Sequence record: PQ819470.1
Reading direction: 5' to 3' (one strand)
Source of the DNA: Escherichia phage ev_rybdy3
DNA: 64,000 nt
Part shown: positions 5,896 through 13,137 of the stretch, one piece after another
Position numbering within the stretch: position 1 is the stretch's first letter
Layout of the letters: every line of letters begins with the position of its first letter
Notes under the pieces: generated by a model
What the model saw: only the letters and a program-made list of their open reading frames with translations
Told to the model about the DNA's origin: nothing
Database searches by the model: none
Position numbers and translations under genes: made by a program

Positions 5896-6192
5896 ATGAC
5901 TTTAGAAGTATATAAATTCCTTTTTGTAAGCTGTTTAACTATCAGCGTTCTAGGGTTTATTATTCTCAGAAACAAAGCAGCAAGCTGGGAGAGAATGTAC
6001 AAATCTCTAGTCCGAGTGGATGAGATGTATAATGAGAAAGTTAAAGCAACTCTTAACGATCTTATTATGCAAGTTGAGGACAGAAACAAGCGTCTTCAGA
6101 ATCTCAACCATGAAGTATTACGCCTTGCTCGTGCTAATGAAGATTTGCGAGTAGCCATTGCTAAACAGCAGGAGATTAACAGTGAAGCATGA
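5896..6192 (+). CDS. hypothetical membrane protein with coiled coil
   Basis: track ORF; hydrophobic N-terminus then heptad-like region. Confidence 0.5.
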   Translation: MTLEVYKFLFVSCLTISVLGFIILRNKAASWERMYKSLVRVDEMYNEKVKATLNDLIMQVEDRNKRLQNLNHEVLRLARANEDLRVAIAKQQEINSEA

Positions 6193-6439
6193 TATCAATA
6201 CAGCACCTGTGGTTAAGCAGCTTAAAGATCTAAGAGTGGGGGATGTTTTTGAAACTGTACCACATAAGAATAAGTTGTATCTTGTAGTAAAACTCGATTC
6301 TTCAACTGTTTATCAAGCCCAATGGAAACCTGATAAAAAGGTAGTAGTAGATCTTACTTCAGATAGAGTAACAATGTTGAGAAAAGATACTGTTGTTCAA
6401 ATAGTTGATAATGTTCGTCTTACTAATAAGGTGGATTAA
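6182..6439 (+). CDS. small early protein, paralog family A
   Basis: shared pattern L-x-x-GD-x-F ... Y ... NL-x-(S/T)G; GTG after CAGGAG (TTG 6158 alternative). Confidence 0.5.
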   Translation: MKHDINTAPVVKQLKDLRVGDVFETVPHKNKLYLVVKLDSSTVYQAQWKPDKKVVVDLTSDRVTMLRKDTVVQIVDNVRLTNKVD

Positions 6440-6441
6440 CA

Positions 6442-6678
6442 GTGAAAGTTAATATTAAATCCGATCGTACAATGCTTCGCTTAAATAATATGAAGCCGGG
6501 CGTTCTATTTGAGCGTAAAGATTCCCTTTACATCAGAACCGACACTCTGTACGCAGATAATTATATCAACTGTGTTGATGTAGTAACTGGAAAGCTCATG
6601 CCTTTTAAACGGGATGAAGTCTGCCAAGTTCGTAGCGATCTCCACATAACTAACATAGAGGCTAAAGATGAAGATTGA
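6442..6678 (+). CDS. small early protein, paralog family A
   Basis: track ORF; family motif present. Confidence 0.5.
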   Translation: MKVNIKSDRTMLRLNNMKPGVLFERKDSLYIRTDTLYADNYINCVDVVTGKLMPFKRDEVCQVRSDLHITNIEAKDED

Positions 6679-6919
6679 TCTTGAGATGAAAGCTAAAGAG
6701 TTGTGTGTGGGTGATTTGAAACTTGGTGATGTATTCCAAGTTAAGGCAACATGTATTGATTATTACATGATCGTTCAGCTATATACACCACATGTGTCAG
6801 AGACTGATCTTCGGAATGGTTGTGTAGTGCTTAGTTTAAGCACCAATCAAGTAATGAAGCTAGATTCAAACTTACCTGTTTCAGTTATCCATGATGCAGT
6901 AATTACCAATCGGAAGTGA
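6668..6919 (+). CDS. small early protein, paralog family A
   Basis: track ORF; LKLGDVFQV...IVQLY. Confidence 0.5.
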   Translation: MKIDLEMKAKELCVGDLKLGDVFQVKATCIDYYMIVQLYTPHVSETDLRNGCVVLSLSTNQVMKLDSNLPVSVIHDAVITNRK

Positions 6920-6921
6920 AC

Positions 6922-7134
6922 ATGAACATTGAAAAGAAGGTTGTTGACGAGGCTGTTCAGTTACGATCTCTTGAAACACATGATGTATTTGTGTGGGGAG
7001 GTAGTCTGTTTCAGAAATCTGCTTATGCTGTAGAGGGTGGGGTTCGTTGTTTTAATATCTTCAACAATGAGATGCAAATCCTACCTAACTTCGCTCATGT
7101 GAATAAACTTATCCACCTTTCTATTTATCAATAA
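6922..7134 (+). CDS. small early protein, paralog family A
   Basis: track ORF 6916-7134, ATG 6922. Confidence 0.45.
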   Translation: MNIEKKVVDEAVQLRSLETHDVFVWGGSLFQKSAYAVEGGVRCFNIFNNEMQILPNFAHVNKLIHLSIYQ

Positions 7135-7144
7135 GGGCAATTAG

Positions 7145-7363
7145 ATGGAAATTAAAGTAGTTGATTACCCTAAATATGCAAACGCAGAAGATGTCAAGGG
7201 CGGTGATGTTTTCTCTTACGATAGACGTTTCTGGCTGATGTTAGAAGATAAAACTCCTGATGGTTTGTGTAAGGCCGCTAACTTGAACAGTGGTTCTGTT
7301 GAAGTCTTTGGTCTATCAACAACTGTTATGCCACGTCCTGATCTGTGTTTATCTCAAAAGTAA
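7145..7363 (+). CDS. small early protein, paralog family A
   Basis: KGGDVFSY...ANLNSGSV. Confidence 0.5.
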   Translation: MEIKVVDYPKYANAEDVKGGDVFSYDRRFWLMLEDKTPDGLCKAANLNSGSVEVFGLSTTVMPRPDLCLSQK

Positions 7364-7372
7364 CACCGACTT

Positions 7373-7405
7373 ATAGCCCTTGTGCTTATCAGAGGGCTAT
7401 GTGAG
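7373..7405 (+). repeat. conserved hairpin ATAGCCC...GGGCTAT followed by GTGAG, copy 1
   Basis: same stem and GTGAG tail recur at ~13147-13174, each ~10 nt after a family-A gene stop. Confidence 0.45.
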
Positions 7406-7881
7406 GGTGTTCCTCATTAACTTATTAATTCAGGCATATGCCACACCGCTAGGGAGAGCTTGCTCGAACATCCGGTGTTAGACTAAAACCTGTTAATTTT
7501 CGAAAGACTTTCTGATATGTAGGGGTACATATTAGTTTGGGATTCAGGAGACTTCCTAGGGGTAGGGAGTCTTCACCAGTTGGAATAAGAGATAGCTCTA
7601 GAACCTGAACTCTTAGGCAGAGAAGGTCGGCAATGAGTACGCGGTCAGAATTAGTCTACTGACTAGGGCTATCCCTTATATCAACTGGCAATAATGCCTC
7701 CACTAACAAAGAGAGATAGGTATGAAAGTATCAACCAAACGTATGAACCGCCCTGAACGTATGGATGCAGTAGCTAACGGTGCTCTGAAACTGGAAGGCT
7801 TCTGGGTTCATGCAATGTCAGCCATCCGTAACAAGCAAGGTAATTGGACCTATGCCGGTTAAATCAGTCCATGTAATAGGT

Positions 7882-8061
7882 ATGCGAGAGATCATTCGCA
7901 TTGCCTTAATGGAACACACTGATCGCAACGCTCAACTAACGCAAATCTCTAAGTGTCTTAACTGTTCGAGAGATGTGGCTAAGGAATTAATGTTCGCATT
8001 CCTTTATAATGCAGAAGACGAAACGCTACAGAATCATCTGATTCGTGGTGTGAGTCAATAA
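7882..8061 (+). CDS. hypothetical protein
   Basis: track ORF 7810-8061, internal ATG chosen; start uncertain. Confidence 0.35.
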   Translation: MREIIRIALMEHTDRNAQLTQISKCLNCSRDVAKELMFAFLYNAEDETLQNHLIRGVSQ

Positions 8062-11449: not shown

Positions 11450-11457
11450 GAATCAAT

Positions 11458-11712
11458 ATGAAAGTTAATGAGTTAAACAAAACTACCAAGACTGTGAAAC
11501 TGCACACTCTGAAAAAGGGTGATACATTCCGTTTAGAGGAGAATGGTCCAATCCATATGGTTTGTACTGCGGCATCTACTAACTGGGTAGAAGTTGCACG
11601 AGATCGAGTAGTGTGTGTCAGGCTGGAAGATGGTAGTCTGAGCGGTCCAGTTGAAGGTATCTCTGTTATTCCTGTTAAGGTTGAAGCTAACGTTATTAAG
11701 GACTCTAAATGA
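11458..11712 (+). CDS. small early protein, paralog family A
   Basis: LHTLKKGDTFRL... Confidence 0.5.
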   Translation: MKVNELNKTTKTVKLHTLKKGDTFRLEENGPIHMVCTAASTNWVEVARDRVVCVRLEDGSLSGPVEGISVIPVKVEANVIKDSK

Positions 11713-11954
11713 AGATCATCCCAAAGAAAAAGGATAATACGGTACGGTTGGAAACGATCATTCCCGGAAACCCCTTCGTGGTTCAGCACGGAAGTGCCTC
11801 TCCTCAATATTATATGAGGGTTGAAAATGCTTCTGGTAATATCCGTATAGCCAGTGGCTGGGTTCCTGTGGTAAACCTTTCCACAGGTGTACTATCTGTT
11901 AAAGGTCTTGATGATCAGGTAGAAATGATTCGTATGTCAGTGGTTCAGGAGTAG
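11709..11954 (+). CDS. small early protein, paralog family A
   Basis: LETIIPGNPFVV...YYMRV...VNLSTG. Confidence 0.5.
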   Translation: MKIIPKKKDNTVRLETIIPGNPFVVQHGSASPQYYMRVENASGNIRIASGWVPVVNLSTGVLSVKGLDDQVEMIRMSVVQE

Positions 11955-11956
11955 GT

Positions 11957-12205
11957 ATGAGCATCATTAATATTAAGGTTAAGGGCAAGGAGGAAATAGT
12001 CCTCCGTGTTAGAGATCTAAATATGTCAGATGTGTTCACTCTCCAAGAGTGTCAGAATCAAAAGATTTATATGCTTACAGCTAAAAGCAGGGGCTGTCAA
12101 CCTGCTGGAGCTGTTAACCTAGGCACTGGAGAACTACGTGTCATCTCTGGTGATATGGTTGTTGGTGAGAAGTTTATTAAGGCTGAAATCATCTTAACTT
12201 CATAG
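11957..12205 (+). CDS. small early protein, paralog family A
   Basis: VRDLNMSDVFTL...YMLTA...VNLGTG. Confidence 0.5.
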   Translation: MSIINIKVKGKEEIVLRVRDLNMSDVFTLQECQNQKIYMLTAKSRGCQPAGAVNLGTGELRVISGDMVVGEKFIKAEIILTS

Positions 12206-12213
12206 GTGATCTA

Positions 12214-12426
12214 ATGACACAAGAAGAGAAAGATATACTCATCCAGAATGCGTATCTACTGTTTTCCTCTGAGGATGTTCTGTTCGATCAGCTTTCTAAA
12301 TTGTGGAAAGTGTCCGAAGAAGAGACTAAAGAGAAGTTTTATTCTGGCATAACAGAAGATTACAAATCTTTTCTTGGTGAGGTGCTGAGAGATCGGCATG
12401 TGTATCTAAGTAATTACGCCTGTTAA
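12214..12426 (+). CDS. hypothetical protein
   Basis: track ORF, 70 aa. Confidence 0.4.
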   Translation: MTQEEKDILIQNAYLLFSSEDVLFDQLSKLWKVSEEETKEKFYSGITEDYKSFLGEVLRDRHVYLSNYAC

Positions 12427-12573
12427 TAGGAAAACAAATGAGACGTAAAGCATATTCTTATGACGATATGATTAACCAGAAAGGCTTCGGTCAACGACAG
12501 CCTGACGGTTCAATTATCTGGTTCGTAAACGGACAGAAAAAGGTAGCTAAATAAGCCCTCTTCTCTCCCCCCC

Positions 12574-12590
12574 TTTTAGTACTATGACGC
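12574..12590 (+). repeat. 17-mer TTTTAGTACTATGACGC, copy 2, preceded by C-rich tract
   Basis: identical to copy at ~4997-5013. Confidence 0.45.
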
Positions 12591-12661
12591 CTCTCTGTGG
12601 GCGGCCCAATTTGCGTAGGGAATTCCCTCTACGCAGTCATGATTTTTAAGGAATTTCCCCT

Positions 12662-12895
12662 ATGTCTAAAGTAAGTGCAATTGATGCAATCCGTCAACCG
12701 TTCCAGTTCCAATCCAAATCAACCCAAACCTTCAGCGAGCCTAAGCAAATTCGCTTGGGTGGCACAGAGAAGACTGTGTTTGATCTGGCTAAAAACAAGA
12801 GCGTTACCGTAGTTGATGGTGGCACTCTGGTTAACGTTTCCCATCGTATCCGCACTGGCAAAACTGCCAAAGATCGTGCTAAGAAAGGTGAGTAA
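12662..12895 (+). CDS. hypothetical protein (possible distant family-A member)
   Basis: track ORF; RLGGTEKTVF...VDGGTLVNVS. Confidence 0.4.
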   Translation: MSKVSAIDAIRQPFQFQSKSTQTFSEPKQIRLGGTEKTVFDLAKNKSVTVVDGGTLVNVSHRIRTGKTAKDRAKKGE

Positions 12896-13137
12896 TGAAA
12901 ATAGGGAAACCAGCTAAGGATGTTCTAGCGAAGATTGGTGATATCTCTATTGGGGAAGTTTTCTCAGCTGAGCACTTTTCAAGTTACTACATGAGAATCC
13001 CTGACACTAAAGTTGAGGGTTGCATCATCCCTGCCAACGCAGTTAACCTGAACACAGGACACCTGTCTGCATTCAAACCTGATTCACAGGTTACTGAAAT
13101 CAAAGATGCCTACCTCGCCTTTGGTGGGGATAAGTAG
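12895..13137 (+). CDS. small early protein, paralog family A
   Basis: ISIGEVFSA...YYMRI...VNLNTG. Confidence 0.5.
   Translation: MKIGKPAKDVLAKIGDISIGEVFSAEHFSSYYMRIPDTKVEGCIIPANAVNLNTGHLSAFKPDSQVTEIKDAYLAFGGDK

Follow-up and report, generated by a model that had tools for sequence, protein, structure and literature searches.

Pairwise comparisons, profile searches and shuffling controls show that eleven small genes in the early region of Escherichia phage ev_rybdy3 (record PQ819470.1) share common ancestry and form a single diversified family, the members of which are predicted to be stand-alone SH3-like small β-barrels of 70–85 amino acids (aa). The genes lie between positions 6182 and 13137 of the 64,000-nucleotide (nt) stretch of phage DNA that was analysed, which we call the window. 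An original prediction, made from the letters of the window, had described at least 11 paralogous small early proteins at this location. The family is not specific to the ev_rybdy phage but represents a single expansion of an SH3-like-barrel domain that also occurs widely in other virulent phages, a relationship that was absent from that prediction. The eleven members are listed here with the PHROG protein cluster to which each belongs.

6182–6439, plus strand: o6182, 85 aa, GTG start, isoelectric point (pI) 9.5; phrog_9955 subgroup; 11-nt overlap with the upstream gene.
6442–6678, plus strand: o6442, 78 aa, GTG start; phrog_16423.
6668–6919, plus strand: o6668, 83 aa; phrog_9955; overlaps o6442 by 11 nt.
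6922–7134, plus strand: o6922, 70 aa; phrog_33163; the most divergent member.
7145–7363, plus strand: o7145, 72 aa, pI 4.9; phrog_6570.
9746–9967, plus strand: o9746, 73 aa; phrog_6570; diverged tandem duplicate of o9977.
9977–10198, plus strand: o9977, 73 aa; phrog_6570; closest to the family consensus.
11458–11712, plus strand: o11458, 84 aa; phrog_7832; begins 8 nt 3′ of a helix-turn-helix (HTH) regulator gene.
11709–11954, plus strand: o11709, 81 aa; phrog_7431; start overlaps the o11458 stop (ATGA).
11957–12205, plus strand: o11957, 82 aa; phrog_12612.
12895–13137, plus strand: o12895, 80 aa; phrog_12612; start overlaps the stop of gene 12662–12895 (TAATG).

All eleven open reading frames (ORFs) exist at the starts named in the original prediction and match annotated coding sequences (CDSs), each labelled ‘hypothetical protein’ in the record of Escherichia phage ev_rybdy8 (PQ819471.1). 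The motifs it had quoted (VGDVFETV, LGDVFQV, GGDVFSY, IGEVFSA, ANLNSGSV, VNLSTG, VNLGTG and VNLNTG) are likewise present. The proteins are small, as had been noted, but the size range of about 72–93 aa gives way to 70–85 aa from the annotated starts, the 93-aa value having come from an upstream TTG start. The proposed central segment, Y-(M/I)/Y-I-(T/N)-C, also needs amendment, because the Y-I-T-C of o9746 and o9977 aligns with the strand leading into the VNL motif and not with the central YYM strand.

Pairwise identities are mostly 14–33%, and when the proteins are compared by BLASTP with the complete set of 394 window ORFs, most members are linked directly. Expect values (E) connect o9746 with o9977 (1e-29), o7145 with o9977 (6e-8) and o11957 with o12895 (3e-7), followed by o6442 with o9977 and o11709 with o12895 (each 2e-5) and by o6182 with o6668 (2e-4), and o6922 has no significant pairwise link among the window ORFs. 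Genes 9746 and 9977 are indeed tandem duplicates, as had been claimed, but with 59% protein identity and 63.5% DNA identity they are not the near-identical copies described.

The alignment and hidden Markov model (HMM) check proposed with the original prediction, in which shared positions lacking statistical support would count against a family, was run as a strict leave-one-out analysis. Specifically, the remaining ten proteins were re-aligned each time and searched against the left-out protein, the 383 non-family ORFs and 2,000 shuffles. Left-out members scored 12.1–57.0 bits, compared with maxima of 13.9 bits among shuffles and 8.3 bits among other ORFs, and none of the 2,000 shuffles attained the observed score in any of the eleven cases. 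The highest scores belong to o9977 (57.0 bits) and o12895 (47.3 bits), followed by o6668 (32.1), o6442 (30.1), o11709 (28.6), o7145 (27.9), o6182 (23.5, with shuffles at or below 12.3), o11458 (21.7) and o11957 (21.6). The weakest member, o6922, scored 12.1 bits, whereas its shuffles reached 7.9 and other ORFs 5.8 at best.

Independently built profiles lead to the same grouping. Every one of the eleven proteins belongs, over its full length, to one of eight PHROGs of ‘unknown function’ (6570, 7832, 7431, 8365, 16423, 12612, 9955 and 33163) and cross-matches several others, full-length and in the same order. For example, o12895 matches phrog_6570 (E = 3.5e-8), and o11458 matches phrog_8365 (4e-9) in addition to its own phrog_7832 (1e-26). 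Similarly, o6442 matches phrog_16423 (1e-48) and cross-matches phrog_6570 (2e-8) and phrog_7832 (1e-5), o6182 matches phrog_9955 (5.6e-14), and residues 1–51 of the divergent o6922 fall on positions 1–52 of phrog_6570 (0.0025). The PHROG collection keeps these eight clusters separate and unannotated, whereas here they are joined as one superfamily with one fold. Leave-one-out scores above shuffles and other ORFs in all eleven cases, together with these cross-matches, bear out the proposal of one diversified multi-copy paralogous family. Narrow and broad HMMs revealed no twelfth member in the window, in the remaining genome or among stop-to-stop remnants, and no degenerate copies were found in intergenic gaps, so that ‘at least 11’ becomes exactly 11.

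The fold of the family was modelled with AlphaFold2 using o12895 and an alignment of 132 sequences, which carries out the structure prediction that had been suggested. The model is an all-β barrel with a mean predicted local distance difference test (pLDDT) score of 83.9, in which an antiparallel sheet of five to six strands bends strongly and closes on itself, as in the SH3-like fold class. A Foldseek search gave no significant solved relative (best E = 0.066, template modelling (TM) score of about 0.46), and a sequence search of the PDB returned nothing below E = 0.2. The structures that rank highest as neighbours are the C-terminal domain of uL2, domain I of EF-P/eIF5A, the Spt5 KOW domain and the Tudor-like domains by which CarD, Mfd and UvrD bind RNA polymerase.

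The consensus of the family reads MKI..L..GDVF..YYM..VNLxTG.L..F..V.PV.A.LVI. Conserved elements comprise the MKI start, L14/L17, G20-D-V-F23, Y32-M33, V50-N-L-x-T-G55, L57, F60, V66, P68 and a hydrophobic C-terminal strand, and among these M1, G20, F23, G55, V66 and the hydrophobic positions around them are nearly invariant. Conservation is limited to residues of the barrel core and its turns, and the conserved positions include no polar set that looks catalytic. Mean entropy is 2.60 in strands versus 3.03 in loops, and length variation is concentrated in the β3–β4 loop, with an insertion hotspot after position 43. The consensus N-terminal tail is lysine-rich. Among the 132 members, the median pI is 5.4, with 64% below 6 and 9% above 8; members in the window range from 4.9 to 9.5, and four of them are basic (pI 8.7–9.5).

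Curated libraries assign no function, in agreement with the original prediction. None of the eleven members matches a Pfam family at E values up to 1, and none of the 132 homologues matches one (E up to 0.01 for KOW/Tudor-like families). NCBIfam likewise gives no match, no PADLOC-DB model matches any of the eleven members at E values up to 0.1, and neither members nor homologues match the profiles of Pfam anti-defence families such as Acb2_Tad1_hairpin and Lar_restr_allev.

Although the proteins share a fold class with the uL2 C-terminal domain, EF-P/eIF5A domain I (KOW-like) and the CarD/Mfd-RID/UvrD C-terminal domain group, there is no sequence-level relationship. In profile tests, the eleven members and 132 homologues do not belong to the KOW (PF00467) or CarD_TRCF/Tudor-like families. 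They differ from KOW- and Tudor-type barrels in structure comparison (no Foldseek E below the value given above) and in being stand-alone and mostly acidic, with motifs of their own (GDVF, YYM and VNLxTG). Nor do they appear to be Sso7d/Sac7d-type proteins, which are strongly basic with a conserved DNA-binding face, as the family is acidic at its median and conserves hydrophobic and turn residues.

To define the distribution of the domain, an exhaustive profile search was made of 1.84 billion cluster representatives at E ≤ 1e-3. This search yielded 2,370 representatives aligned end to end, most of them stand-alone proteins of 69–88 aa that align from residue 1, the majority of which begin with ‘MK’. 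Two-domain tandem fusions account for about 16 of the 146 top representatives outside the earlier match set. Of 132 diverse homologues, 118 match phrog_6570, 108 match phrog_7832 and 99 match phrog_7431. Verified members occur as early- or middle-gene ORFans in three model phages, namely N4 gp21 (hhalign probability 96%, E = 1.4e-9; HMM E = 1e-18), PaP3 ORF65 (HMM E = 2e-10) and LUZ24 gp7 (E = 3e-13; hhalign 94%). All three have the same domain, size and motifs and reside amid small genes in early regions. Furthermore, look-alikes are present among viral structure models, from phages that infect Vibrio, Proteus, Dickeya, Erwinia, Klebsiella and Yersinia.

Some candidates were rejected. Two representatives (P0120, with RCC1 repeats, and P0127, cadherin-like) are false positives caused by their repeats and lack any match at the level of the domain. 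Three others (P0178, P0200 and P0237) remain candidates, with single or partial matches only. Neither phiEco32 gp79, which is α-helical and binds the RNA polymerase clamp, nor PaP3 gp70.1, which has no HMM match, is a member; the PaP3 member is ORF65.

One representative, P0100 (E = 6e-34), is encoded on a Bacteroidota chromosome and joins an SprT-like protease to five basic repeats of the barrel core. This gene (locus L006, 3583–5019) encodes 478 aa with the SprT-like metalloprotease at the N terminus and resides amid the housekeeping genes for LpxK, RF-1 and NIF3. The protein represents a cellular use of the same domain, possibly for nucleic-acid binding. Distant representatives are mostly metagenomic and are found in arrays of small genes without Pfam matches. 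In the two metagenomic phage contigs carrying representative P0122, an Acb2/Tad1-hairpin gene lies 5 kb away in one and a Lar restriction-alleviation gene lies 1 kb away in the other (L016, 5580–5981; L017, 3392–3778). This neighbourhood suggests an anti-defence island, although it concerns a single gene and we treat it as anecdotal.

Region 6000–13300 of the window is 100% identical to phage ev_rybdy8 (77.8 kb, reverse strand), and the same region is 91–95% identical to phiEco32-like Kuravirus genomes (Gordonclarkvirinae) across 70–79% of its length. Relatives at this level of identity include SU10, NJ01, SGF2, Paul and SkaterBoy/Bas90. The family genes are arranged in tightly packed runs, as had been predicted, with successive spacings of −11, +2, −11, +2 and +10 nt in the first run, +7, +9 and +9 nt in the second, +8, −4, +2 and +8 nt in the third, and −1 nt at o12895. 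Such spacing, along with the Shine–Dalgarno-like motifs that precede family genes, is compatible with translational coupling. The runs belong to rightward early operons downstream of the following promoter cluster.

1019–1738, plus strand: three near-consensus sigma-70 promoters in a cluster (TTGACA-16-TAATAT at 1019; TTGACA-17-CATAAT at 1219 and 1710).

The cluster is found in an ORF-poor stretch and presumably corresponds to the early promoter cluster known from phiEco32 and SU10, in agreement with the early promoters reported for these phages (PMC4281155). Counterparts of the family in SU10 are gp96–98, gp102 and gp111–114, all contained in the SU10 early block of CDS 69–125 (PMC4281155). 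The orthologous block makes up the early class defined by experiment in phiEco32 (PMC8948821, PMC4281155) and has been described as a set of diverse genes of unknown function that are likely involved in host takeover (PMC8948821). The predicted location in an early region is upheld by both the promoters and this correspondence, which are consistent with early expression of the family from a sigma-70-driven block.

Copy number was compared in the homologous region of other phages. It holds 11 copies in ev_rybdy8, 10 in Bas90, 10 in NJ01, 9 in phiEco32, 9 in SU10, 8 in Paul and 8 in 1-6af, with partial N-terminal matches included in the totals of phiEco32, SU10 and NJ01. In contrast to these 8–11 copies in Kuraviruses, the other phages scanned carry 1–4. 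One copy each is present in the N4 region (1–40 kb) and the PaP3 region scanned, and the LUZ24 region has, besides gp7, an ORF without annotation that gives one weak, partial match. Vibrio phage 1.101.O has one copy and one weak match, and Proteus phage 3H10_20 has a tandem pair and two weak matches. The eleven genes represent a lineage-specific expansion of a widespread phage domain.

The positions that family genes occupy are syntenic among Kuraviruses, but their contents differ between close relatives, as seen in a comparison with phiEco32, SU10, NJ01, Bas90, Paul and 1-6af. All six share four members (o6442, o9977, o11709 and o11957), with identities of 84–100% for o9977 and 68–99% for o11709 and with o11957 alleles that are 52–94% identical across relatives. 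The alleles of o6668 are 57–99% identical, and o7145 is missing from Paul. Other members are distributed more narrowly. For example, o6922 occurs only in Bas90 and NJ01, where the protein is 100% identical at a synonymous divergence (dS) of about 0.1, and o9746 and o12895 occur in none of the six, their places being taken by an unrelated 82-aa gene and by other genes, respectively. In the o6182 and o11458 slots, alleles only 28–35% identical reside beside neighbour genes that are 94–100% identical. Specifically, SU10 and NJ01 have 33–35% identical alleles of o6182, and at the o11458 position phiEco32, NJ01 and 1-6af carry only a 28–30% identical allele, whereas Bas90 and Paul carry both.

Each orthologue evolves under strong purifying selection, as judged by ratios of nonsynonymous to synonymous divergence (dN/dS) of 0.00–0.25 at dS values of 0.1–1.2, which are similar to those of neighbouring genes. 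Individual dN/dS ranges are 0.14–0.17 for o6182, 0.02–0.19 for o6442, 0.02–0.18 for o7145 and 0–0.14 for o9977. Such low values within lineages indicate that the diversity represents old, exchanged alleles maintained under purifying selection rather than rapid point substitution. Near neighbours tend to share a subgroup (6182 and 6668; 9746 and 9977; 11957 and 12895), and this pattern fits local duplication followed by divergence.

Two genes that adjoin family members deserve separate description. Gene 11138–11449 (plus strand) is labelled ‘endonuclease’ in PQ819471, and its product matches sigma-70 region 4 and HTH profiles as well as a PHROG annotated ‘transcriptional regulator, D5-like’; it stops 8 nt before the trio at 11458–12205. 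Gene 12662–12895 (plus strand) encodes a 77-aa protein of phrog_6662 with no Pfam match that is 100% identical in phiEco32, Bas90, SU10, NJ01 and Paul and 99% identical in 1-6af at dS values of 0.10–0.27. On these comparisons, its product is an exceptionally constrained early protein, and its stop codon overlaps the start of a hypervariable slot, which is filled by o12895 here.

Among known kinds of phage gene families, a close analogy is the roughly 35-copy zinc-ribbon expansion of Bacillus phage G (PMC7824862). It likewise consists of one small, multiplied domain without a known function, for which a role in supplying diversified binding specificities has been proposed. The family described here differs in being a β-barrel rather than a zinc ribbon and in having cassettes that are exchanged between close relatives. 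Because the genome is only 78 kb, the eleven genes constitute about 8% of the genes of the phage, and they occupy 3.4% of its DNA. The same or related phages also encode small early proteins with known host targets, such as the RNA polymerase-binding gp79 of phiEco32 and the growth-inhibitory gp70.1 of PaP3, but both are unrelated to the family, and the α-helical gp79 is encoded elsewhere in its genome. We found no description of the paralogy in the literature searched, and no data on N4 gp21, on the PHROG identifiers or from CRISPRi-ART. We regard the family as a new and uncharacterised one within two known kinds, those of small SH3-like barrels and lineage-specific phage accessory expansions, and not a categorically new system.

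We tentatively favour, with a little less than even confidence, the reading that the genes encode a repertoire of non-enzymatic binding modules, each directed at a different host or defence protein. Each paralogue would be a stable module in which the shared core serves as a scaffold, while variable loops and surface residues give each copy its own target. The proteins would be made within minutes of infection, and each would bind a different host protein stoichiometrically. Likely targets would be components of defence systems or stress responses rather than essential machinery, and the set would constitute an accessory repertoire for counter-defence or host adaptation that is reshuffled among Kuraviruses by recombination. 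This interpretation draws on the conserved scaffold with its variable loops and surface, the mostly acidic composition, the early location, the turnover of cassettes and the lack of toxicity of the member that has been tested.

The earlier proposal of a host-takeover or anti-defence arsenal is plausible, and for an anti-defence role the circumstantial support comprises the slot differences, the P0122 neighbourhood, the resistance of the Gordonclarkvirinae and the non-toxicity of LUZ24 gp7. [quoted passage not shown] Of 13 early ORFans expressed in Pseudomonas aeruginosa, four inhibited growth and two reduced biofilm, and LUZ24 gp7, which was one of the 13, belonged to neither group (PMC4635203, including Table S2). 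This is the only experimental datum that we found for any family member. A more ambitious version holds that each paralogue or allele of this one barrel neutralises a different immune or stress protein and that the recombining cassettes explain the resistance of the Gordonclarkvirinae; we consider this version doubtful.

Several observations weigh against a repertoire of binders for host proteins. No partner or phenotype is known for any member, and the association with anti-defence genes rests on one gene in two contigs, with other sampled contexts being uninformative. The four members that are universal in the Kuraviruses examined are highly constrained, as would also fit a core role internal to the phage. 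Some members may bind nucleic acid, given that four in the window are basic and that the SprT-fused repeats are rich in Lys and Arg, and the structural neighbours are mostly barrels associated with RNA, ribosomes or RNA polymerase. Finally, mass spectrometry of a crude SU10 virion preparation detected no member, and no protein-level evidence of expression was found.

In a rather unlikely alternative, the proteins are small barrels that bind nucleic acid, ribosomes or RNA polymerase, as KOW, Tudor or Sso7d-like domains do, and tune transcription or translation. An example would be anti-termination, by which early transcripts are read into middle genes, and a paper on phage 7-11 reports an undefined need for anti-termination in this phage group (PMC8948821). 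Besides the structural resemblance to uL2, EF-P/eIF5A, Spt5 KOW, CarD, Mfd and UvrD, this alternative can claim the lysine-rich N-terminal tail, the high pI of four window members and the five basic repeats of the bacterial SprT-like protein. SprT-like proteases are DNA-dependent in eukaryotes. The mostly acidic or neutral character of the family argues against general nucleic-acid binding.

It is distinctly unlikely that the proteins act within the phage rather than on the host, as small adaptors or regulatory subunits for its conserved replication, transcription or nucleotide-metabolism proteins. Strong purifying selection and the four members shared by all six relatives speak for such roles, as do the apparent translational coupling of o12895 to the invariant 77-aa protein, the position of the 11458 trio directly 3′ of the HTH regulator gene and the non-toxicity of LUZ24 gp7. 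However, presence, absence and allele replacement vary between phages with almost identical core genes, and copy number ranges from 1 (N4 and PaP3) or 1–2 (LUZ24) to 11, although core modules show no corresponding changes. The domain is also found in phages of unrelated types and on a bacterial chromosome.

It is very improbable that the proteins are toxins that shut off the host by inhibiting essential processes, in the manner of classical early killers. The early region has been described as likely containing host-takeover genes (PMC8948821), and many small early phage proteins do inhibit growth (PMC4635203), but LUZ24 gp7, the sole member tested, inhibited neither growth nor biofilm in P. 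aeruginosa, whereas four neighbouring ORFans were inhibitory. This result argues against a host-killing role, and a set of eleven paralogous killers would be redundant. That unrelated short ORFs resemble one another merely by chance or composition, as the low pairwise identities and the isolation of o6922 in BLASTP might have suggested, has virtually no probability in view of the leave-one-out and shuffle results, the PHROG cross-matches, the 2,370 homologues aligned end to end and the confident shared fold.

Other features of the early region were recorded alongside the family. Positions 5307–5696 (plus strand) encode a SleB-like cell-wall hydrolase domain (PF07486, E = 8.6e-8) just 3′ of a strong terminator-like hairpin at 5232–5251, an unusual site for a muralytic enzyme. 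The gene at 5896–6192 (plus strand) is labelled ‘DNA helicase’ in several records by way of phrog_12154, although its product has 98 aa and no Pfam match, and the label is probably a propagated mis-annotation. Two Cys-rich mini-proteins are encoded among the family genes at 8479–8664 and 10208–10381 (both plus strand), one of 61 aa with paired CxxC motifs and the other of 57 aa, very acidic and with 8 Cys residues, and both are likely to bind zinc. Between the family clusters lies a tRNA-Arg gene (anticodon UCU; 9093–9168, plus strand), followed by a small lipoprotein-like ORF (9183–9488) with an LTGC lipobox-like motif. From about 16066 onward, the window contains a module of amidoligase, COOH-NH2 ligase, glutamine amidotransferase and gamma-glutamyl cyclotransferase genes. 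This module (also at loci L014 and L022) is common to this Kuravirus, Proteus phage 3H10_20 and Pseudomonas phage PaP3, and in all three phages it is located just 3′ of the small-gene early block.

Our findings unify at least eight unannotated PHROGs with N4 gp21, PaP3 ORF65 and LUZ24 gp7 in one superfamily with a predicted SH3-like fold. For this superfamily of about 2,370 cluster representatives, we found no description in Pfam, NCBIfam or the literature; a new domain family entry is justified, and the genes should no longer be regarded as ORFans without relationship to one another. The broad resistance of this phage group to bacterial immunity is unexplained, and the family provides a compact and testable set of candidates. 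Its eleven small soluble proteins, together with natural presence and absence variants (BASEL phages Bas86–93), are available for interaction and anti-defence screens. If the more ambitious version of the binder repertoire, in which each copy neutralises an immune or stress protein, proves true, the approximately 2,370 homologue clusters would constitute a large untapped class of anti-defence proteins.

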